Position numbers and translations under genes: made by a program | Shown here: positions 1,106 to 60,160 of the stretch, piece by piece | Numbering within the stretch: the first letter of the stretch is position 1 | Layout of the letters: each line of letters begins with the position of its first letter | From: a virus | Virus record (IMG/VR): IMGVR_UViG_3300040786_000047 | Length of the DNA: 64,000 bases | Direction: 5' to 3' (one strand) | Notes under the pieces: model-generated | Told to the model about the DNA's origin: nothing | The model's database searches: none | What the model saw: the letters and a program-made list of their open reading frames with translations, nothing else

Positions 1106-1484
1106 ATCTTGATCATTTAAATCATCACCGTTATTATTATACTCATTAGGATCATTTCCATTCATACTATCAGGATGCTCATTAGGATCATTTAAGTCAT
1201 CATGGTCTCTTCTTTTGTATTTGATTAACCATATAACCTGCAACAACAAACTGAATCGACGCCCATATACCAAAATCAGCAGTACTCATAACATCATACT
1301 TTTTAATTAGAAAAAAATCATACCCCACTCCGCAATTGCAAAACCAATACCTGATTCCATTCTTTTTTAGAAAGAAGCTTTTCTTACTGGAGTATATAAG
1401 AACCATTTCACGAAGGAACCATTTAATATTAGTCCATCCTAGTAGATATTTTGTATTTTTTACATTTTTTAATGGAGTTTTCAT
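1085..1484 (-). CDS. Two-TM membrane protein with acidic tail, possible holin (frameshifted)
   Basis: Rebuilt hydrophobic segments GIGFAIAEWGMIFFLIKK and FGIWASIQFVVAGYMV followed by a D/N-rich tail with DPNE repeats. Confidence 0.45.
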
Positions 1485-3781: not shown

Positions 3782-4926
3782 AAAACATTTCATTATTTTA
3801 CCACACTTGTGACATATATGGATCATCTCCACCTTCTTTTTTATATCCCAGGACCAACCACATTTACATTTTATAACATCACTGCCTTTTGCCAAAGACT
3901 TAACTTTTTGATTAAATACATTTCTATAATCGTCTTGTCTATCTTCTGCACCACCTGTTGAAAAGTTTCCTGGTGTAGTTCCTTGTGCTACATTAAAACT
4001 TGTAAATGGTATAAGTGAAGATTGTAAGCCAGGAGCTTGATTCTCTTTTACAAAGTCAACATAACTCTTAATCTTACTGCTTTCTATTACTTTTTAGAAT
4101 AACCTCTCTTTGATGTATCATACAATCTAAATATAGTATCTGGATATATTTCTTTAAGTTCTTTAAATACCTTCTCAACATGAAGAACATTTCTAATATC
4201 ATCATCACTCATCCCAAAACTTATACTTGCTCCGATTCTGTTCGCAAAACCTTTTACTTTAGTCATAAATTCTTTCAATGCAATCTCTTTACCAACTTCT
4301 GGTGAATCTGCCCCACCGATTTGTGTTTAGCAACAAAATCTTCATTACTCACACCATAATAATCACACTTATTTAAGTAACTCTTAACTTGTGAATTTTT
4401 TGAAAAGTTTGTAGTATCTAAATTTGCAGTATGATGTTTGTCGGTTGTACCAATTTCTCTAAAATAATAAGAGAACTTTGCTAAGTTTGAATACATTTTT
4501 CTTTTTTGCTCATCAGTTAGATAATTATCTATTATCCACTCAATACCCTTTCTTATAGCTTCTGGACCATGTCCTCTTGCCGTAATCAGTGCGAATAAAT
4601 ATCCATTTTCAAGAACATTTATAAATTTTTCCCAAGATGGTGCAAATTCACCCGCATTTACAGCATATTTTAAATCTTCTAAAACGCATCATCACCCCTA
4701 GGTCCAAAGTCTCGAAACTCTATAAATGCATTATCAGCCAACTCCCAGTTATCTTTATCATTTCTTATCTCTGCAAACATTTCAGATGATACACCTTCTA
4801 CTTTACCAGTTTTAATATTTAACATATTAATCTTAGTTGGCATATGTAATAAATTATCATCAATATCAAAACAAGAGTATTCGATATGAATTTTATTTTT
4901 TTTATCGTCTTCCATTACTAAACATA
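3782..4926 (-). CDS. HAD-superfamily hydrolase-like protein with C-terminal Zn-ribbon module (frameshifted)
   Basis: Motif I FDIDDNLLHMPT, motif II LITARGHGP, motif IV GMSDDD; C-terminal CxCGWSW..GGDDPYxCHKCG. Confidence 0.7.
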
Positions 4927-4978
4927 TTTATTTTATAAAAAGTCCTATTTTTCAAGGACTTTAATTTACTTTACCTTT

Positions 4979-5311
4979 CTAAAAGATTATTTTTTGATCT
5001 GTTAACAAATGACTGAAAGATTCTAATTTAGACTCTTCTTCATCATCTTGACCTTCGAAATCTTCATCATCTTCATCATCTTGACCTTGCATTTGACCTT
5101 CGAAGTCTTCTTCTTCATCTTGACCATCAAAATCTTTAAATCCTTTGATATCTTCATCATCTTGACCTTGCATTTGTCCTTGACCTTCTTCAGCAGCTTC
5201 AAGTGAAAATTCTTCCACAACTTCACCGTCTAATTCAGCTTTAACAGTTACAACACCATCAACTTCTTCGATTTCAATTTCATATCCAAGTACTTCAACT
5301 TTAGTTTTCAT
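4979..5311 (-). CDS. Highly acidic protein with duplicated GQMQGQDDED motif
   Basis: 110-aa ORF, very D/E-rich, internal repeat; TAATATATA upstream at about 5332-5340. Confidence 0.65.
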   Translation of the reverse strand: MKTKVEVLGYEIEIEEVDGVVTVKAELDGEVVEEFSLEAAEEGQGQMQGQDDEDIKGFKDFDGQDEEEDFEGQMQGQDDEDDEDFEGQDDEEESKLESFSHLLTDQKIIF

Positions 5312-5379
5312 ATTATTTTATTATTTTTTATTATATATTAAATAATAAAACTCTTTTATACTTTTTAATAAAAGGTTAA

Positions 5380-5903
5380 TTATGAAAAATAGTGTATGTT
5401 TTCTCTATTAAAATCTACAACTCTATTTAGACCATCTACTATATATGACTCTTGTATTTTCTCTTTACTTAATTCTAAATCCTCTAATAATAGAGAATGT
5501 TTAATAGATTGTGCAAATTTGAAGTTAGATTCTTCTATTTCTTGCCACGTTGCGCTAACGCAATACATATTCGCTTCCATGTAGTCTGATATAATCATAC
5601 CGGTTGCGAGTCCTTTATGCATACTTTTTTAAAAAAATTGGTCTGCATTACACCATATACCTATGTTTATCTTTTCTCTTAACAAGTAAACCAATCCACT
5701 ATCTACTATAAAATTGAAATCACCATCAGCAAGTCCTCTTTCGGTACCATGTCCCATTAGTACAATTATATCATGTTCGCTTATCAAAGTTTAAGTTTCG
5801 ATTTGCTTATATTTTTTTGTAACAATAGTCAATCTTTACCATCATATATTGTTGATAGAAAGTCAGTTGTTTCGTCTTCTGCATGTATTAATAAAGTTTT
5901 CAT
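5380..5903 (-). CDS. Putative clan CD (caspase/gingipain-fold) cysteine peptidase-like protein (frameshifted)
   Basis: Rebuilt HDIIVLMGHGTE and NIGIWCNAD: beta-strand-His-Gly then beta-strand-Cys; joins ORF 5380..5622. Confidence 0.5.
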
Positions 5904-5952: not shown

Positions 5953-5971
5953 TAAAAAATAATATAGTAAA

Positions 5972-6602
5972 ATGTCAGACATTGAAAAATTTTAAAATCA
6001 AAAAAATAAACAGTACTTATTTAAATTATTATAAGAATAGTTTAAATTACAATTACGGAGGTGACCAACAAGTTGATGTATTCACAAAATTGTTCGAAGA
6101 TAGAATATTGATGTTGACTGGAGATGTAGATGATTACATATGTGATTTAGTTAAAGCACAGTTACTTTACCTTGAATCTGAAAGTAAAGAAGATATAACA
6201 ATGTATATAAATTCTGGTGGTGGTTCAGTATATAGTGGACTAGGATTATTAGACGTTATGGACTTTGTTAAGCCTGATATAATAACCGTAAATACGGACT
6301 TGCAGCATCTATGGCAGCAGTTATTCTTTGTTCTGGTACAAATGGTAAAAGAAAGGCACTTAAAAGAAGTCGCACAATGATACATCAACCAATGAGTTAT
6401 GGTTCTGGATATTCACAGGCATCTGATATGGAATTAGACACAAAGGAAATATTATCTTTAAAGAAAGAACTGTACGAGATAATTTCAGAAAGTTCAAACA
6501 TATGATAAAGTTTATAAAGATAGTGATAGAGACTATTGGATGAGTGCGGCCGATGCTAAGAAATATGGAATCATAGACGAAATTATTGTAAAGAGGAAGT
6601 GA
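5972..6602 (+). CDS. clpP: ATP-dependent Clp protease proteolytic subunit (frameshifted)
   Basis: DVFTKLFEDRILML, LLYLE, MYINSGGGSV, TG(L)AASMAA (Ser), MIHQP (His), DRDYW (Asp). Confidence 0.95.
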
Positions 6603-6605
6603 TAG

Positions 6606-7035
6606 ATGTTCGAAATCTATCAAGAAGATAAGTTAAAAAAAGATAATTCAGGATATACCTTCAAAGTATTCTAATAATGGTATTAGAAGAACTGTATTTC
6701 CTGAAAAGAAATGCCTACCGATGAAATTATGCATTTTTCAATATGATTATAGATGATATAGGATATATCTTAGACGCACCGGTTACGCAAATAGAAGGTA
6801 AGACACTTCTAACAAGTAGAATTTGCTCATCCTCACTTAATGACTTAATAAAAATAATTTTAGTTAAATGTCAAAAGGATGATATGTCTATCGGATACTA
6901 TAATGTATCTATTGATGATAATAATTTATTGAATATATATGTATTTAGAATGTTTTATTATGATGATATTGGTAAGTAACAGAAGAAGTAGAGAAACTAA
7001 AATTAATGATATATTAAGTTGGTTATATACTTAGT
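6606..7035 (+). CDS. Hypothetical protein ending in RETKINDIL tail (frameshifted)
   Basis: Includes ORF 6743..6979; next frame reads AGA GAA ACT AAA ATT AAT GAT ATA TTA. Confidence 0.5.
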
Positions 7036-8749: not shown

Positions 8750-9096
8750 TTTTAATTTTAATTAAGTGTATTTGTGAATTAGCATATGGTTCATCATTTT
8801 TGTTAAATAATGTTCTTTTCTATAAATTTCATATATATATCCGTTTTAAATTCAATGCTTATATCATCACCAAGAGCATTATTTAAGTAATCTAACATCG
8901 TATCCACATAATCTTTTATTTCATCATATTTAAAATTAACTTTTTTTAATAGAAATAGAAATATAACTATTAGTAAAATCCTTCTTTATAGAAAAATTAT
9001 TATCTATAAGCTCAATTAACATTCCGTCAATATCAATTTCTATTTTATCTATGGGATATTTACTATCAAACCTTCAAAAAATTTAATGTATTTCAT
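8750..9096 (-). CDS. CTS-family paralog A3 (frameshifted)
   Basis: MKYIKFFEG..DIDGMLIELIDNNFSI..FKYDEIKDYVDTMLDYL. Confidence 0.75.
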
Positions 9097-9107
9097 AGTA
9101 TATATTA

Positions 9108-9135
9108 AAACAAAACATGGTATTTTATATATAAT
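9108..9135 (+). promoter_or_regulatory. Putative phage middle promoter for uvsW
   Basis: AAACA-N17-TATAAT, 6 nt before ATG 9142. Confidence 0.6.
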
Positions 9136-9141
9136 GATAAG

Positions 9142-10731
9142 ATGAAATTTAGATATGATAAAGAAACAGAAGAGCTTGTAGTAACTGATGCAGTAGAATA
9201 GAATATCACCAAATAGGATTGTGGTTAAACAGACATGTCAAGGTTGGAAGTATCAACCTGCTGTAAAATGGGTGTTTGGGATGGTAAGAAGTCTTACTTT
9301 AAAAATGGACATAAACATGGGTTTGTGGAAAGAAGCTCTTAGAAGTTGTAAAAAATTGATACACCTTTTATTATAGAGAATAAAGAAGACTTTCAATTAA
9401 TAGAGAAGTTACATTAGAAAAGTACAAAATTTTGTAAAAATTTTTTCAAAATCATAAAGTACAAAAGATAAAACTATGATACCTTTTGTTCCATATTCAC
9501 ACCAGATAGAATCAGCATACAAAATACTAAAGAATAGGTATTGTATGGCAGAAGTCGCTACATCTGGTGGTAAATCTTTGATAATATCAATTGTGATGTT
9601 TTACACATTAAAACACATTGATAAAGATGCTAAATTTCTTATCATAGTTCCTTCAATTACACTTGTTACTCAATTTTATGATAACATAATTGAATATAAT
9701 TTTGGACTAAACAAACTTATCGAAATGCGTGATAATAAAGTAGACTACACTTAACAAAGACACAGGTGAACCTAATTTACCTTGTGAAGTTAGAGTCGAA
9801 GAGATTATGAGTGATAGACCTAGAAAGTTCTCTGGTACTGAAAATCCAAATATCTATATCGGAACATATCAATCACTAGAAAAGTGGCCTAAAAAATTCT
9901 TTGAACAATTTCATACTATTGCAACAGATGAAGCACACGGTGCAAAAGCAAAGACTATTTTATCTATACTAGAAAATACATTTGGGTTTGCTTATTCAAG
10001 ATTCGGGTATCAGGTACCTTTCAACAGATGAAACCTGTGAGATATTAACAATACAATCAGTGCTAGGACCTAAAATAACAGAGGTTAGCGCAGATGAATT
10101 GAAAAGAAAGGTATTATAACACCAATGGAGATAAAAGCCGTTATAATGAACCATAACGATGAACAGTTTGATGAAAGGTTAAAGTTAATAAGAAAAGAGT
10201 GGAGATGGTAAGTCAGCATTTGATTTAGAAAAGGCTTATGCACATAGATCTGATAAAAGACTTGAGTTTATAAAAAAATATAAGTGTAGTAACAATACAC
10301 TATTACTCTTTCATACAATTGAGAATGGACAGAGAATATTTAATAAGTTAAAAGAAGAGATGCCTGAAAAGAGTTTTACTATATTGATGGTGAAGTTAGC
10401 GGTAAGAAAAGAGAGATAATTAAAAACAGATGGAGGTTACCGATGGTAAGGTAAGAGTATTAGTTGCTAGCTTTGGAACTTTGGCAGTAGGTGTTTCCAT
10501 GAACGCTATATTTAATATCATATTTACAGACTCATTTAAGTCTGAACAAATCGTTATACAAGCAATTGGTAGAGGACTTAGACTACACTCAGAAAAATCA
10601 AAGTAAATATATTTGACCTTGTTGATGTATTTAATAAAGAAATGAATAATATACTATTTAGGCATTTTAAAGAAAGAGACATTTACATAAAGAGGAAATA
10701 TCCTTATAAAATAATTAAAATAAATTTATAG
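9142..10731 (+). CDS. uvsW: UvsW-like SF2 DNA helicase (frameshifted)
   Basis: Walker A VATSGGKS, LIIVP, TYQSL, DEAHGA, SGT, VFGT-like SFGT and QAIGRGLR motifs. Confidence 0.9.
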
Positions 10732-10773
10732 AACACATAGTTTAATATATAATTAATAAAATTAAACTATATA

Positions 10774-13166
10774 ATGGCAACTGATACAAAAATAACCCTT
10801 ATTAAGAAAAGTGGACCTGGTGTGCTTATTGGTTTAGTTGAATTAACTTCTAAAATGGATATGTTGACTTTGGTGGGTTACAATTTGAACTACCAGGTGA
10901 ATATGTAATATCGGTTATATCAGAGTCCGATCTTGTCGAAAATACTGAAATATCTATAACAGTTCTTCCTAGCGATGACATAATCGGACAAGATAATAGT
11001 GAAGTTTCAGAGCCGAAATCCATAGAAGGCACAAGACCTATAATTGCACAAATAGAAAAACTACTACTAAATTAGATCCAATTGAATTTGAAGGTAATGA
11101 CCCTAGCCATGATAATGAAGCTGCTGGTGGACTTGGATTTACACCATTTTTCTGGTATAATGGATATCAAGTAAGCGATAGAGATATTTCTTCTTTAAAT
11201 CTTTACTACGATGGAATTATCCCAAAAGTATCTATTATGTTTTTAGATTCAATGGGGTTTATGAAAAAAGATGGATTTCCACTTGATGATGCAAAATTTG
11301 AAATATTTTTTAAACTCAGGTACAAAAAATTTAAAATCAATACATCTAAAGTTTAAGTTAGAAAATTTCCAAGAAAATAAGCGTAAAACTTATACAATAA
11401 TAGGAACTTTAGATATTAAAGACTTTTATAAAATATCATTTAAAAGTTATAGAGGAACATCATTTGAAGCTCTTAAAAAAATGTCAACTGAGTTAGAGTT
11501 AGGATTTAATTCTAATATAACTAACACTTTGATAGTATGAACTGGGTTAACAATGGTAAAGTATCAAAAGACTTCTTTTTGGATGTTATTAACCATTCTT
11601 ATATATCAGATAACTCTTATGTATTGGGTTATATAGACTTTTATTATTGTTTTAACTATGTTGATATTGAAAAGAATGGCTCAGAGACATATCACAAGAT
11701 GTTGGATTAAACTCAACTGGTATTAACTATTTGAATAGTGATAGTGATAAGGATAGAGTAGAAGTTTAATATTAACTGATGACCAGAGTGCAAATTCAAG
11801 TCCATTCTATTTTTCAAGTTATAAGTTAAATAATAATTCAACACAAATATCACTAGAAAGTGGACATTTTACTAAATCAAAAGTTTATGATAGTATATCA
11901 AAACAATTTTAATATTTGATGTAATTCACAAACATCGGATGGAGTTAAAACACATATACTTAAAGGTGCAGGTGATAGTAAGGACATAGTTGAAAATTAT
12001 CGAACAAAGTATTCAGGTAAGATGGATACCGAGAATGTTTATAAAAATTATTACTATTCGGAAACACAAAACAAAGTAAATCTAGAAAACCTAGTTAGAA
12101 TATCAGTGGATATTATATTACCTAATCCAAATTTCAACTTGTATAAATTTATGAAAATACAAATGATATTTGTTAATAAAATGAGTAGTCCTAGTAATGA
12201 TGAGATTGTACAATCTAGGTTAACCGGAGAATGGCTCATTACTGATATTGGATATAGTTGGAGTAGAGGTAAATTAGAACAGAATGTTAATTTAGTGCGA
12301 AAAGAAATTGGCAAACACCAACTGAAATAGAATCAGATAAAAATAATATATCAAGTGCAAGTCCAGAAGTCAATAGCGAAAATAACGATAATCCAATTAT
12401 AAATTCTGATGTTGTAGGATATACTCAAAGTGCGGTACTTATCGAAGAACAAGGAGTCTTTCAGTTTGGTGAGGAACAAGACACTATTGGTTAAATGATG
12501 AATATAGAACTTCCGACTTTATAGGTGATGCTGAGGATGTACTCACAATTGAGCAAATGAAGTTATTTGATCGGATGTAGTTAATAACCTAACAAGTGAA
12601 GAGATTGCTGAGATAAAAGTGTCTTATAGTAAGGAACACCTCTTAAGTCACCACCAAGAGATTTGCTATTAGCAATGAGAAGATATGGTATTACTAGCAA
12701 TTTGGAACGTGCTCATTTTTTAGCACAATGTGCTCATGAGTCTGGTGATTTTCAATGGACACAAGAACAAGGAGGAATTAAGTACCTGACTGGTCTGTAT
12801 GAAGGAAGAACCGATATTGGTAACACAAGTCCAGGTGATGGTTTTAAATATCATGGTAGGGCTATATACACGTAACCGGTAAGTTCAACTATGCCGCATA
12901 TAGTAAATACCTAGTCTCAAAGGAGAAGATAATGTATTATTAAATCAGGATTAGTCTCATCAAAATATGCAGCAGACTCTGCATGCTACTGGTGGAAGTT
13001 TATAAATAGATCAGTTTCTAAAAGTGCCAACGGAGGATCATCTTCTTCAGTAGTAAAAACTGTTACTCATGCTGTTAATGGTGGTGACCGTGGACTTGAT
13101 GATAGAGTATCAAGGTTTAATGGATACTATGCAGAGATTAAAAATGATGGTTCTAAATATGCATAG
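10774..13166 (+). CDS. Baseplate hub-like structural protein with C-terminal GH19 lysozyme-like domain (frameshifted)
   Basis: Long structural-type N-region next to the gp5-like gene; C-terminal RAHFLAQCAHESG, GDGFKYHGRG, TGKFNY, VNGG motifs. Confidence 0.7.
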
Positions 13167-13190
13167 AGATAATAATTTAATATATACGAA

Positions 13191-15027
13191 ATGGATATAA
13201 GAAATTTTACAAGTATAGATTTTGCTAGCAATAGAGCAGGTGATTTAAGAAAAACTTAAGTAATATAATTGCAAATGGTAAAGAATGGCCACAAAGGTTA
13301 GGTCAGTTAATCCTGGATTTCTATCACCTTTATTAATATCACCAAGTGCGTTTAGACCAAATGGTTCTACTAGTAGTAATACAAGTAAAAAAATAGGAAG
13401 TTACGAATATACCGATTGGACTGGACAAAAAATAACATTAGATGGTACTGTATTGTTAACAGAGGATAGATTTAATGAAAGTAAGGGAGATTTTCCAAGA
13501 ACTGACATAAGTAAAATCCTTATAGTACTAGAGATACTTATTTAATATTTAATGATAACTCAACAGACTATTTTACATGGCTTACAAGTAATTGATAATA
13601 TAAATAACGTAAGTTCGGACAACACTAACACAAGTGCTAGATTAGGAGGTTTAAGAATACCCTTTGAGAATAATGACCCTGTTATGTTTGGATTTGAAAT
13701 AGTAATAGATTCCGTTAGCTCACCTTTATTAAATGGATCCATTACTGACTTCCTAATAACTACAGTAACATAAGCGAAGTTGCATCTAAAATACCTGTTT
13801 ATGAAGACTTCAAGCAACAGTTTGTTAAATTTTTCAAGACTAATTCAACAGTTATTATTGATACTGATGTTGCAACAATTAGTAAGTCATCAACAAATTA
13901 CTCACATAGTGATAGTCCTAAGAATCTACATCAAAGTGGGAAAACATCTTATATGAACTACTATTTAAAGAAAGTTGCAGGTTTAAAAAATCTAAGCGAG
14001 TCTAATACTGGTGATACTAAAAAATACTTAGTAGATTATAGAAAAGATTTAATAACACTAGACTTTAATGAGGATGTAACATTAAGCATTGGTACTTTAG
14101 CGCATTTATATAAATTATTATATTGGTCTAAACCTAATGGAAAGAGTATTATCCCTGAGAACTTACTTAGATTTAATTGTGATATTATCTGAGTGTAGAA
14201 ATTTTAACCGAGCAAGAAAAGCAGCAGGAACCGGTGAGGTAGTTGAAGTTCTTAAAGATAACTTATCTAGATATATTTATAGTTTAAAGAGTGTCAACTA
14301 TTTTTCAATATGCCACATCCAGATGATGTTGATTTATCAAGTATTTCGACATATGAAAACTTTAGTGTATCATTCGATTATAAATATTCTACTGTTAACT
14401 TTGAAAAGTTCTTACCAAAGGGAAATTTCGGTCAATATGTTGGATATGATTCAGGTGCTATTTGGCGAATAGGAAATCCAGGTAATAGAAATGGTAGATC
14501 AAACGGTCCGAGACTTCAATTCCTAAATTTTTTACCGAATTTGATAATAGTCTTAGAGAGAATGGAGTCTTATCACCATTTATCACTGGATCATATAAAC
14601 CAGATGGTATTTCAGAAACTGCTGAAACACTATCATCTATTACTGATAAATATAGTTTAGATGAGAAGACAAGGAAAGAGTTGGAAGAAAGTGAAATAGG
14701 TTCTACACCAAAATCTCAACTAGATATAATGAAAGATAACTTTAAGTTAAATCTCAAAAAAAGTTATAAAATTAAAATCAGAAACAATTAAAAGTGTTGA
14801 GAAAGAGATTGTAACACTGGTAAACAATAGAATTAACCTACTATCAAGAACAATTAACAAAATTGGAATTGGATTTGTTGGTGGTAAAGGAATTAGTCCA
14901 CCACAGAATGTATATAAAAATTCTGATGGTAGTTTAGAAGTGCTGTTGCAATACCAAAGATAGGTTCTTCTATGATATAAGAAACGAACTAACTGATTTT
15001 GCAGGTGGTTCCCTTAGTAGCTTTTAA
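13191..15027 (+). CDS. Putative baseplate/tail-tube-associated structural protein (frameshifted)
   Basis: Continuous coding through ORFs 13285, 13552, 13953 and 14310; lies between hub and spike; TAATATATA upstream. Confidence 0.5.
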
Positions 15028-22394: not shown

Positions 22395-22439
22395 CTTTAA
22401 TAGTTATAAAAAAAGAAAAAATAACTTAATATATAGTTT

Positions 22440-24050
22440 ATGAAAAATATACAAAATTTTAATAACTTTAATTTAATTAAAGAAGAAGCATCACCAAGAC
22501 TTCCTAAATCAGAAGATTGGTTGAAGAAAGGAAAAGATGGAAAAAAAAGTAGCTATTTATCTACATGATGATATGGATGGTATCTTTACTGCAATAGAGG
22601 TTAAGAATTTACTAAACGCAGGGTTTACTATTGAGAAATATGGTATACTTAATTACTCAGAAGGTTGGAAATATACTACACTTGATCCAAAGTTAATAAA
22701 CGTTGTAGTTGACTTTGCTAATATGCCAGGTGATGAAAGAGATGATTTAGTTGATTATTATTAGACCATCACGGGATATTTACACCAGAACAAAAGAAAG
22801 ATATAAATCATCACCTGTTCAAAAAATGAAAACAGGATCTGCTTATGAGGCGATATGTATCAATTTAGGAGTTCCGCAAGATTCACTAACAAAGGTTATT
22901 GATATGATAGACTCTGCAAAGTATCAGGATTATGGTATTTCGTGGGATAGATTACTAGACTTTAATATAGCATCTATGAAAAAGTCGAAAGACAAAAGAT
23001 TAGAATTTGGTGCTGCATTTAATCAATTTATAAAAGAAGTGATAGTAAAACTATAATATCTGTTGTTGATAACACTAACGATGCATCTATATATGCAATA
23101 TACAATGTAATGAAAAAAGTTTATCCAATGCACAACCTACGATGGGTGGTCCTAATAGAGGAATGCCAAAAGACTTTAATAAAGATTCTGAATGGAGACT
23201 TGGAGAAATGCAAAAAAAGAACTAGAGGTTTTAATAAAGTAAAGACAACATTTAATACACAAGCAGAGTTTATACAAAAATTCCAAAAGGTAATCTAATT
23301 AAAGTAGATGGTTATCAAAAAAATTGGTGACCTTATATTTGTCCCAACAGGAACTTGGGCAAATGCACTTAGAGCAAGAACAATTGTCGAAAGAGACTTA
23401 AAAGCAGGTCATCTTGATTCAGAGCCTAAGTTTATATTATTGCAATATGGAGGAACTTTACAAGTTTGTGGATATAAGAAAATGGAAGAGATGGAATTAC
23501 CAACATTAAAGAATGGTGAGGTCGTAAATGATTTGGGTAAGTATATGACTGAATTATTAGAAACTTTAAAAAACATTTAGGATATCACAATCCTGATACA
23601 TCTATTGGACAAGATGAAATTACAGTTCTGGTGGTCATGGTGGTATTGGATCTATTTCGAATGTTTTTGGTGAATGTAAAATAGCTCCTTATATTGGACA
23701 AAGATATATTGATATGTTTAAAAATAAAATAATTTCAGATTTATCAAATGGCGTTTTATTTAATTTAAACTTAAAATGGAGCGAACCTGCTGATTATAAT
23801 ACAAGTGAGCCTACTATGAACAACAAAGTTATTAATAAATCTGATGTTACGCAATTAGACAAACAAGGTAATATTGTTAGTAGCAATGAAAGTTCTGAGT
23901 ATGCTTTAATGGATAAAGAAACAGGTGTTAGTAGAAGTTAGTAAAGAAGAGTTTATGAAAGTAAATGCATCTAATCCACTTAAAAACAAAATAACTATTG
24001 ACGATGATAATAGAATAGTTTCAAGTTTTGAGAAGTTTAATCAAAAATAA
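22440..24050 (+). CDS. DHH-family phosphoesterase with CTS-like N-terminus (frameshifted)
   Basis: MKNIQNFNNFNLIKEE; motif I YLHDDMDG, motif II VVDF, motif III LDHH; TAATATATA at about 22427-22435. Confidence 0.8.
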
Positions 24051-24064
24051 AAATTGATACATAA

Positions 24065-24456
24065 TTAAATAAAAAAGTTAGGATATAATCCTAACTTTTT
24101 TTTCTTTAATATATCTTTATTACTTATTAAGTAATCTATTTTATTATCTCTTATCATATTTAGGTCGTATGTTAATAATATTTCAAATGGATCCATGTAT
24201 ATATCCACGTAACATTGATATCCGCATATCTCTCCGACTTTTCGCATCTCATTACTATCTCCGAGTATCATTAATGTATCAATAAATCTATTATCAGTTG
24301 ATATAATATTATATACATGAATTGGAATTATCATACTATTATAATCTCTATAATTATATATTTTATCAAATATTATTTTGCTTTTTCTCTATATTCATCT
24401 ATAAAGCCATGTCCGTAATTATCAGAATTTAATACCTTACTTAAATCTATATCCAT
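24065..24456 (-). CDS. Small protein resembling an internal segment of gp23 major capsid protein plus IRDNKID tail (one frameshift)
   Basis: NSMIIPIHVYNIIST..VGEICGYQCYVDIY..ILLTYD aligns by eye with T4 gp23 NFIIASRNVVNVLAS..AGVLGGKYRVYIDQY..FTVGYK. Confidence 0.5.
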
Positions 24457-24460
24457 ATTA

Positions 24461-24488
24461 GTTATATTAACAAACAAAATAGAAGTTT
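24461..24488 (-). promoter_or_regulatory. Putative phage middle promoter
   Basis: AAACT-N17-TATAAC, 4 nt before ATG 24456. Confidence 0.55.
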
Positions 24489-24544
24489 ATATGCATAAAT
24501 ATTTAAAATATATCTTAATATATACAATAAAATAAATTGAAAAT

Positions 24545-25200
24545 ATGGCATATATTAAGTTATAATGAATCATTTAGTAGTGAGGATAAATTAAATCTAT
24601 TGTTAAAAAATTCGGCAAATCAATAGACACTAAGGAATTATTAGACTATTAGAACCATATAAAGGTAAATTAAGAAAACTATCATGAAATACACAATTAA
24701 TGGTAAAATTGATGCAAGTTTAATTGAAAAGGATATTAGAAAACTTAATCTTCAACAAATGAAGTTTAAGTGAGAATGTTATTCTAAGGCTATTAGTAAG
24801 AGTTATTAATTTACCAATTAATTAGAATATTATTTCACTTTTAAAAATATGTGGGATGAGGGAAACTTTATAAAATTAGTACAAACATTTGTTGTTGCTA
24901 TTATTGTTTTATATTAAGTTTTTCTGTATATCAAATAGGAGAACATGTGATTAATGGAATTAGCGTAGGTATCGTCGATACCGAAGTTAAATTGACCTGC
25001 TCACTATGAAACAAAAACACATACTTATACTGATGGTAACGGTAAATTACGTACATATACAACACAAGAATATGTGCCAGATACTTGGGAAATGGATGTT
25101 AGAGCATCAAATGGAAGAATTGAAACTTGGGAGACTACTGATAAGGTTTCTGTGGTCGAATAAAGAGTCTATTGTTAAAACCGAAGAATGGCATTGATAG
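24545..25200 (+). CDS. Membrane protein with CTS-like N-terminus (frameshifted)
   Basis: MAYI..YNESF start; hydrophobic TFVVAIIVLY segment; C-terminal PAHYETKTHTYTDGNGKLRTYTTQEYVPDTW. Confidence 0.45.
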
Positions 25201-25277
25201 GTACTAAAGAATATGGAGAAGATGGGTGGTAATTTCTCAGGTGGTGGATCAGAGGAGATTATAAATAATAAATAATT

Positions 25278-25590
25278 ATGAAACATATAAAGATATTTGA
25301 AGAATTTGGAGAAAGTGGTAACTTTCACTAATAAAAGAAATAGAAACCAAGTAATAAAAGTTACTAAAACTCTGATGGTAGAATAACAGAAATTGATAAT
25401 CCAACAGAGTGAGATTCGCTTTTTCAGTAGGTCAACTTTTAATAGAAATGCTGAAATTTGGGCAAGTAATAACTTCTAATGGATGGTAAAGATATGAGTC
25501 AGAAAAAAAGGTAATGGGTATTAAAGTATCTGATATACCTCTTGGACATGAATTGAGAGCGTTATATCCTGGTAAGTTCAGAAAGTAAAA
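25278..25590 (+). CDS. CTS-like N-terminus protein (frameshifted)
   Basis: Starts MKHIKIFEEFGES. Confidence 0.55.
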
Positions 25591-25646
25591 ACAATTTTAT
25601 TTAAACTTTCTATATTTATGCTATATAAATAAAAATAGAAAAATAT

Positions 25647-26063
25647 ATGATAGAAAATGGTAATATAGTAAATGTCCACTATGTTGGAAAATTTACAGAT
25701 GGAAATGTATTTGATACTTCAGAAGGAAGAGAACCTCTTCAATTTGAATTAGGTGCTGGTCAATTAATTGCTGGATTTGAAGCTGCGGTTTTAGGTAAAG
25801 AAATTGGTGATAAAGTAACTGCAAATATAAATGCCGAAGATGCTTATGGTGCAGTTAAGGAAGAGCTTATTGTAAAAGTTCCACTTGATAAAATGCCTGG
25901 TAGTGTTGAAGTTGGACAAACTTTAGAAGCTGGTGGTGATGATGGACAAACTCTACAAGTAACGGTGGTTGAGATTAACGAGGATCATGTCTTAATTGAT
26001 GGTAATCATCCACTTGCAGGAAAAGAACTAGTATTTGACATTGAGATTGTTTCAGTTCAATAG
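25647..26063 (+). CDS. FKBP-type peptidyl-prolyl cis-trans isomerase (SlyD/FkpB-like)
   Basis: Intact ORF: VHYVGKFTDGNVFDTS, GAGQLIAGFE, AYG, DGNHPLAGKELVFDIEI. Confidence 0.95.
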   Translation: MIENGNIVNVHYVGKFTDGNVFDTSEGREPLQFELGAGQLIAGFEAAVLGKEIGDKVTANINAEDAYGAVKEELIVKVPLDKMPGSVEVGQTLEAGGDDGQTLQVTVVEINEDHVLIDGNHPLAGKELVFDIEIVSVQ

Positions 26064-26084
26064 TAAAAATATTAAATTTTTAAT

Positions 26085-26119
26085 AAATGGCTTATGCTTA
26101 ATTGTGTAAGCCATTTTTT
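26085..26119 (+). terminator. Intrinsic terminator
   Basis: AAATGGCTTAT..GTAAGCCATTTTTT after the FKBP gene. Confidence 0.8.
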
Positions 26120-59971: not shown

Positions 59972-60160
59972 ATGAAAGATAAAAAATTGACATCAGTGAA
60001 GGATATGTTTTCGCTCCGTATATATTGGCAAGTACCTACCCTTTAGATATTCCAAATTTTTCAAGTAAAGTTTCAATTTCTCACCGGTATGTTACTACTA
60101 GTATTATACCTATAAATGAAATACGAAAGTCTAAATAGAAAATAATAAAACTCACTGATT
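59972..60160 (+). CDS. Mini-protein resembling the gp23 C-terminal GxxxAPY..NF..RY segment plus IRKSKI tail (frameshifted)
   Basis: SEGYVFAPYILASTYPLDIPNFSSKVSISHRY vs T4 gp23 DAGIYYAPYVAL..DPKNFQPVMGFKTRY. Confidence 0.5.

Follow-up and report, generated by a model that had tools for sequence, protein, structure and literature searches.

Introduction

Stand-alone axial (A) domains of the HK97 fold have so far been known only from the Family 4 'A-domain encapsulins' (PF08967/DUF1884; PF0899, PDB 2PK8), small and uncharacterised proteins of archaea and bacteria (PMC8346489, Andreas & Giessen 2021; PMC11664910, Giessen-lab review 2024). The genes for these proteins are cellular, occur in hyperthermophilic archaea and in two genera of the Bacteroidota, and are arranged in two-gene operons downstream of enzymes (PMC8346489); the sole solved structure is that of a dimer (PMC8346489, PMC11664910). 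The vertex protein gp24 of phage T4, a paralogue of the major capsid protein (MCP), possesses the full-length HK97 fold and takes positions in the capsid lattice. In the literature that we searched, we found neither a phage-encoded stand-alone A-domain nor a capsid-fragment decoy.

Here, we describe a mini-gene present in a 64,000-nucleotide stretch of viral DNA (IMG/VR record IMGVR_UViG_3300040786_000047; this whole stretch is referred to as the window). With a probability that we put at about 0.85, it encodes an intact 126-aa protein that consists only of the A-domain of the HK97 fold and that stems from the gp23-type MCP of its own phage lineage, megaphages of the Mahaphage type; the present one originates from samples of sea ice or seawater. 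The predicted hosts of 'Mahaphage' genomes are Bacteroidetes (Al-Shayeb et al., 2020; PMC7162821).

The mini-protein resembles the Family 4 encapsulins in being composed of an A-domain only and in belonging to the same size class of ~100 aa. Unlike these proteins, it is encoded by a phage, stems from a Gp23-type MCP, and carries an additional RDxKIDxIL helix; the Family 4 proteins are not close to Gp23. The PF08967 profile matched none of 58 members of the mini-protein family at E ≤1, and in place of a two-gene operon with an enzyme in a cellular genome there is a lone phage gene between genes on the opposite strand. With the gp23-type MCPs (PF07068; T4 gp23 and the 560-aa MCP of the megaphage LR745206), the mini-protein shares a fold element and the VG.I....YVD.YM motif, but it has only a quarter of their length, is encoded at a separate locus behind a different upstream motif, evolves much faster, and scores below the Pfam threshold. 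From T4 gp24 with its complete fold, it differs in possessing the A-domain only.

Results

The Mini-Gene Is Intact in Nature

As written, an ATG codon at position 24456 on the minus strand of the window opens a small ORF (MDIDLSKVLNS...) that halts after 27 codons, and a second frame of the mini-gene runs from 24388 to 24065 on the same strand. For the reconstruction of the gene (Table 1), the window copy was aligned with two contigs, L014 (97% identical, with its genes intact) and L015. Public short-read-derived contigs of three runs, one of them an ice metagenome (depth ~50), contain both bases that the window lacks. At the first frame break, a base is inserted behind plus-strand position 24381 in run X1 (a public contig with a depth of ~50), and at the second break a base is inserted behind plus-strand position 24104 in runs X1, X5, and X2. 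Because the public contigs and L014 carry both of the missing bases, the gene is intact in nature, and its two frame breaks are (long-read) assembly errors. The true protein ends with ..ILKEKKVRIIS, followed by a stop codon at 24080-24078 on the minus strand. Intact relatives recovered by protein search are 124-128 aa long, and one of them (P0001) is 97% identical to the window copy.

An initial annotation of this locus, made from the letters of the sequence, had assumed a single frameshift, a corrected length of 130 aa, and an added C-terminal tail whose last residues, LGLYPNFFI, precede a stop at 24065. A frame break is indeed present, but there are two of them (A5 in place of A6, and A3 in place of A4); the LGLYPNFFI ending together with its stop is an artefact of the second break; and restoration of both A's yields 126 aa. 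Of the added tail, only the RDNKIDYLI helix and a last strand are real.

Between positions 23119 and 26172, the window departs from L014 by 38 deletions, 4 insertions, and 42 substitutions per 3.1 kb shared, and the window as a whole (28% GC) contains almost no ORF longer than 250 aa. Since it is full of indels relative to an intact, 97% identical contig, the window is a poorly polished assembly, and by implication most of the 'frameshifts' and short ORFs throughout it are artefacts; this bears on every other finding made on the window. Many of the indels relative to L014 fall into homopolymer runs. The gene for a DHH-like protein at 22440-24050 is broken in the window and forms a single ORF of 541-543 aa in relatives. 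The stretch from 23100 to 26100 occurs in ice and seawater metagenomes (public runs), and one ice-metagenome run, possibly the source sample, contains half of the sampled words of this stretch; among RNA runs, none was found to contain the region.

Other explanations for the disrupted frame were rejected. An alternative genetic code does not account for it, as reading TGA, TAG, or TAA as sense leaves the window frames closed; programmed frameshifting and pseudogene decay were discarded on the basis of the L014 alignment, the indel load of the window, and the public contigs that contain both bases.

Table 1. Positions of the mini-gene, its parts and associated elements (window coordinates unless a contig is named)
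Feature	Position	Strand	Description
Mini capsid A-domain coding sequence	24078..24456	-	126 aa with two missing A's restored; three frames as written; aligned to the intact 97%-identical copy in L014
Frame break 1	24382..24386	-	A5 in the window, A6 in relatives and public short-read contigs
Frame break 2	24105..24107	-	A3 in the window, A4 in relatives; creates the spurious ending LGLYPNFFI
Capsid-like core, residues ~38-101	24155..24346	-	NY..IIP..VYNII .. KVGEICGYxCYVDxYMD..ILL.YD; strand, helix alpha-6 and A-domain beta-sheet; from sequence, profile and structure
RDNKIDYLI helix	24125..24151	-	R103, K106 and L111 at least 90% conserved in 58 members; helix 99-112 in the model
Conserved upstream motif	24461..24491	-	TATAAACTT-N14-TATAAC; ends 4 nt before the ATG; candidate phage-specific, non-late promoter
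Bidirectional intrinsic terminator	24071..24101	.	8-bp GC-containing stem (GTTAGGAT/ATCCTAAC) between an A-run and a T-run; perfect hairpin
ATATATAG(T) motif	22429-22437; L004 ~1205-1220		A few bases before the DHH-like start; ~25 nt before the LR745206 capsid gene
ATATATAG(T) motif in L002	Upstream of 4756-5409, 5956-6807, 9042-9956, 10394-12025, 12482-13855		
ORFs with the tail motif	L009:409-1815; L003:5193-5888; L017:3153-3878; L005:1429-1786		Some ORFs consecutive
Second mini-gene	~59972-60160	+	Frame-broken: MKDKK / KIDISEGYVFAPYILAS..SISHRYVTT..IRKSK
Second mini-gene, LR745206 copy	L005:1429-1653	-	Intact, 74 aa, ends IRKRKIENIF

The Mini-Protein Family Is Related to the A-Domain Segment of gp23-Type MCPs

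An exhaustive HMMER search at E ≤1e-3 retrieved 57 cluster representatives (clustering at 50% identity), nearly all of which are ~100-147 aa long. This family carries neither a Pfam nor a PHROG name. The window's own fragments gave no match in Pfam or PHROGs, a scan of IMG/VR with alignment A1 found no relative, and the family HMM detected no paralogue elsewhere in the window. In alignment A2, which comprises 58 family sequences, N50 and G75 are invariant, and F58, D85, R103, K106, and L111 are each conserved in at least 90% of the sequences.

When each of the 58 members was scanned against Pfam, Gp23 (PF07068) was matched by 13 of them, all below threshold and with a best E value of 4e-5, and no other Pfam family recurred. 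The curated PF07068 cut-off of 24.4 bits was reached by no member (example scores are 12-14 bits), and the window ORF and P0001 showed no Pfam match whatever. These Gp23 matches are co-linear, with member residues ~9-111 lying on profile positions ~212-309; coverage is confined to this part of the 376-position profile, which as a whole spans the N-arm, the E-loop, and the P- and A-domains. Co-linear homology to the A-domain segment of PF07068 was found by hhalign, by BLASTP, and by a profile scan of a genome as well. In the hhalign comparison of A2 with T4 gp23, family columns 45-108 correspond to gp23 371-442 (E 0.0041), which bears out the likeness to an internal slice of gp23 that the initial annotation had noticed by eye and places it at the same site. 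Against an alignment of megaphage MCPs, A2 gave an E value of 2.9e-4 and a probability of 40%, the matching segment being megaphage MCP 433-490.

Profiles or structure are needed for the capsid match to emerge, since a single-sequence BLASTP of one member against T4 gp23 resulted in a non-significant E value of 26. An hhalign run of 8 close sequences against gp23 gave a probability of 0.2%. The comparison with T4 gp24 by hhalign was not significant (E 0.5), and sequence-profile searches of the PDB returned no capsid protein, only a chance match to USP8 (E 0.6).

The megaphage LR745206 encodes a bona fide Gp23-type MCP of 560 aa (E 7e-26), and its relatives throughout the clade share at least 74% identity. 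In BLASTP, the LR745206 mini-protein matched the MCP of its own phage with an E value of 0.002 and 13 of 20 residues identical (VGSILGIDCYVDLYMK-DDN versus VGSIGDISIYVDPYMKYNDN). When the 634-kb genome was translated in six frames and scanned with the family profile, six matches emerged, the MCP itself among them. The mini-protein is ~20% identical to its own MCP. Within the same genome pair, the mini-protein orthologues are 37% identical, versus 76% for the MCPs; judged by these identities, the mini-protein evolves much faster than the MCP.

LR745206 also possesses a truncated MCP paralogue of 243 aa (L010:1225-1956, corresponding to LR745206 207176-207907), located 5 kb downstream of the capsid gene. 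It aligns with the MCP in BLASTP with an E value of 2e-17 and 27% identity over MCP 344-530, and it ends with RDIKIDTLL. Since this paralogue combines unambiguous similarity to the MCP with the same tail motif, it bridges the mini-protein and the MCP.

Predicted Fold and Anatomy of the Mini-Protein

A first AlphaFold run with 8 sequences attained a pLDDT of 61 and was too weak for use. The AlphaFold2 model built from the 58-sequence alignment has a pLDDT of 81.7 and a pTM of 0.72, and its elements follow the order strand, long helix, strand, helix, four strands, helix, and strand. The model displays the features of an HK97 axial domain: two helices rest on a central beta-sheet, and the whole is superposable on the A-domains of capsid proteins. 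A Foldseek search of the PDB, which had been proposed as a check in the initial annotation, returned phage capsid proteins only, with chains of T4 gp23 on top (E 4e-3 to 1e-2, probability 1.0), and the model superposes on T4 gp23 330-520. In an exhaustive comparison independent of Foldseek, the best 50 of 48,161 PDB representatives were all HK97-fold proteins, comprising capsids, encapsulins, and the 94-aa PF0899. The nearest ESM-Atlas models were Gp23 clusters (TM 0.69-0.72, rmsd 2.5-2.8 Å over 109-112 residues), and language-model features, taken as a lead only, point toward capsid families too.

The mini-protein starts where the A-domain of the MCP starts (MTIDL.. versus ..TGMDI..). Kept from the MCP are helix alpha-5, the strand with helix alpha-6, and the beta-sheet (VG.I....YVD.YM...I.L), while the N-arm, the E-loop, the insertion domain, and the P-domain are missing, as is the long loop that connects helix alpha-5 with the next strand in the MCP (~376-432 of the megaphage MCP). 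At the point where the MCP exits to its P-domain (GIIFVPY...RSRYAV), the mini-protein possesses the R-D-x-K-I-D-x-I-L helix, which has no MCP counterpart and is conserved better than any other non-capsid element of the family. The sheet is closed by a last strand, KKVKIIS in the mini-protein versus QFMTI.V in the MCP.

Derivation from the capsid protein follows from the Pfam Gp23 matches, the hhalign comparisons, the BLASTP match to the phage's own MCP, the genome scan, the 243-aa paralogue, and the fold. The mini-protein is a stand-alone piece of the MCP whose length is conserved, and the structural half of the interpretation given in the initial annotation holds.

Conservation and Gene Neighborhood

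Whether homologues keep the length of the mini-gene had been raised in the initial annotation, as had the possibility of a recently decayed MCP copy that is free of purifying selection. The relatives proved to be intact at 124-130 aa, in a family of ~100-147 aa, and the dN/dS values among four orthologues range from 0.26 to 0.64. Since these values are below 1, they indicate that the mini-gene is under purifying selection and is not a decaying capsid copy. There is next to no likelihood that the locus is non-functional, be it as a decaying copy of the capsid gene, as a chance resemblance, or as a gene with programmed frameshifts. Such an origin would be in line with the twofold disruption of the window copy and with the E value of 26 in the single-sequence BLASTP against T4 gp23, but ORFs of 124-130 aa are intact in all well-assembled relatives, public reads repair both breaks in a window riddled with deletion errors, dN/dS is below 1, and profile and structure evidence speaks for homology.

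Orthologues of the mini-gene are present in both LR745206 (634 kb) and LR756502 (642 kb). Opposite-strand genes flank it on both sides in L002, L014, L015, L016, L018, and L019; L018 and L019 are very short contigs that show only this lone-gene layout. A DHH-like phosphoesterase gene (541-663 aa) is located downstream in convergent orientation, and a gene for an FKBP isomerase is found nearby. An FKBP and/or DHH-like neighbour is identifiable in L002, L014, L015, L016, and LR745206, and the synteny of the DHH-like gene with the mini-gene spans the window to LR745206 at 38% identity. In LR745206, the mini-gene is positioned ~100 kb from the capsid gene, among non-structural genes. Within this region, only the FKBP-type peptidyl-prolyl isomerase gene of the window (25647-26063, plus strand; Pfam E 9e-19) resembles the 634-kb and 642-kb megaphages at the level of DNA, and it remains close to the mini-gene in those of the examined relatives whose contigs extend far enough (L002, L014, L015).

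This neighborhood bears on a possible function as an enzyme adaptor or chaperone, a role that has been proposed for the Family 4 encapsulins, in which a small A-domain oligomer would bind and stabilise a partner enzyme, the convergent DHH-like phosphoesterase or the FKBP being candidates. The architecture (A-domain only, ~100-130 aa) is as in the Family 4 encapsulins, one member of which forms a stable complex with GAPDH (PMC8346489), and the DHH-like synteny, which extends as far as LR745206 (38% identity), would be in keeping with such a partnership. However, this synteny is weak evidence, because conservation of gene order is widespread in these phages; PF08967 matches none of the 58 members; and the mini-gene forms no operon with any enzyme, as it converges with the DHH-like gene on one side and diverges from its neighbour on the other. 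We consider an adaptor function unlikely.

Upstream Motif, Terminator, and Timing of Expression

The AAACT-N17-TATAAC motif that had been described in the initial annotation can be confirmed at 24461-24488, and orthologous loci have kept it. In seven of these, TATAAACTT is followed ~14-17 nt further on by TA(T/A)AA near the ATG, while the flanking sequences diverge; in LR745206, the motif precedes a two-gene unit with the mini-gene in last position. TAAACTT occurs 54 times in the window, versus 36 ± 6 expected, one copy being located at 25602-25608, ~45 nt before the FKBP start. The pattern AAAC[TA]-N15-18-TA[TA]AA recurs at most ~25 nt from an ATG at several other positions of the window, and in L002 the FKBP gene and a metallophosphatase gene are likewise preceded by an AAACT element. 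The capsid gene and both neighbours of the mini-gene have ATATATAG(T) beside their starts instead.

The ATATATAG(T) element is a candidate late-type promoter distinct from TAAACTT..TATAA; counted over the window alone, 7 copies versus 3.8 expected do not amount to a significant enrichment. As far as can be read from the motifs, the mini-gene fits a temporal class other than that of the capsid gene. This lends indirect support to the timing argument made in the initial annotation, according to which the protein would be produced before capsid assembly.

The terminator of the mini-gene (Table 1) overlaps its last codons and is common to the convergent DHH-like gene. The search for such elements found two, versus 0.1 expected, and the hairpin is conserved in L014 and L015.

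The mini-protein might be a component of the virion, a minor capsid, vertex, or capsomer-centre protein that sits beside the A-domains of the MCP in the giant head. All other characterised HK97-fold proteins are structural, T4 places its MCP paralogue gp24 at the vertices, and megaphages have further MCP-derived genes, such as the one that encodes the 243-aa paralogue at a distance of 5 kb from the capsid gene. Nevertheless, we judge a structural role to be improbable: the mini-protein has none of the elements that anchor subunits in the lattice (P-domain, E-loop, and N-arm), its gene is far from the structural module, the upstream motif is unlike that of the capsid gene, and the protein evolves fast.

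As a capsid-fold fragment with a promoter motif unlike that of the capsid gene, the mini-protein could also act in immune evasion. In the role of a decoy or sensor antagonist, as envisaged in the initial annotation, the free A-domain would be made before the MCP, bind capsid-fold sensors, and block or mis-trigger them. With ~20% identity to its own MCP, the mini-protein would not mimic the targets of residue-specific sensors of the CapRel/Lit type; the Lit target peptide is located within gp23 93-122, outside the domain that is represented in the mini-protein. Low identity to the MCP and fast divergence argue against mimicry at the level of residues, not against mimicry at the level of the fold. 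Capsid proteins are sensed at fold level by Avs7 and Dsr1 (bioRxiv 10.64898/2026.01.04.697583), a documented form of recognition that favours a decoy, and the fast evolution of the mini-protein (37% versus 76% identity for the MCP; dN/dS up to 0.64) is as in arms-race proteins. Yet the gene has no defence-related context, one would expect a sensor to be triggered by a faithful mimic and not blocked, and no published capsid-fragment decoy was found in the literature searched. We consider a decoy function unlikely.

A Shared Tail Motif and Further Capsid-Related Pieces

In LR745206 and LR756502, several small, unrelated ORFs carry the motif R-[DE]-x-K-[IL]-[DN]-x-[IL]-[IL] at a distance of 1-7 residues from their C-terminus (Table 1). 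In both of these complete megaphages, an ORF of 231-242 aa with this motif is located directly upstream of the mini-gene. As a shared tag, the tail motif could serve in docking, targeting, or degradation.

The window contains a second mini-gene (Table 1), whose 74-aa orthologue matches Pfam Gp23 positions 308-356 (E 2.7e-4). This segment directly follows the capsid segment covered by the A-domain mini-gene. In the window as in LR745206, the second mini-gene adjoins the same ferritin/Dps-like gene. It lies outside the A-domain family, since the family HMM finds no paralogue in the window.

Conceivably, the megaphages keep a kit of pieces of their own MCP, made up of the A-domain mini-protein, the product of the second mini-gene, and the 243-aa half-capsid paralogue. 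Each piece would be fused to the same short helix as a common docking tag, and the two mini-proteins would pair via this helix into a soluble mimic of the MCP that is made before the real MCP. Such a mimic would either mislead capsid-sensing immunity as a decoy at the level of the fold, or nucleate or govern the assembly of giant heads. As a joint reading of all these pieces, we hold this scenario to be very unlikely.

Discussion

How the mini-protein functions can be framed only tentatively. The likeliest of the roles considered, though itself somewhat doubtful, is the modulation of giant-head assembly through binding to the MCP or to capsomers. The protein would be expressed from its own, presumably non-late promoter. 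Its lateral A-domain surfaces may then bind MCP subunits or capsomer intermediates, or may self-associate, and the assembly of the very large head would be modulated in consequence; for instance, the MCP could be held in an assembly-incompetent state, or the centres of capsomers could be capped. The conserved helix might serve as a docking element that is common to other small phage proteins. Co-folding of the C-terminal half of the MCP with the mini-protein ended with 'no answer' at a score of 0.00, which speaks neither for nor against this role. The position of the mini-gene in LR745206, ~100 kb from the capsid gene and among non-structural genes, weighs against it, and the far faster evolution of the mini-protein relative to the MCP fits a role in host interaction, or as an accessory protein, no less well.

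Next to the Family 4 encapsulins, the mini-protein family represents a separate, phage-borne lineage of stand-alone A-domains that was cut from a T4-type MCP and is conserved in the phages with the largest genomes. It provides a clonable protein of 126 aa with which one may ask what a free A-domain is able to do, how giant heads are assembled, and whether phages deploy pieces of their own MCP against fold-sensing immunity.
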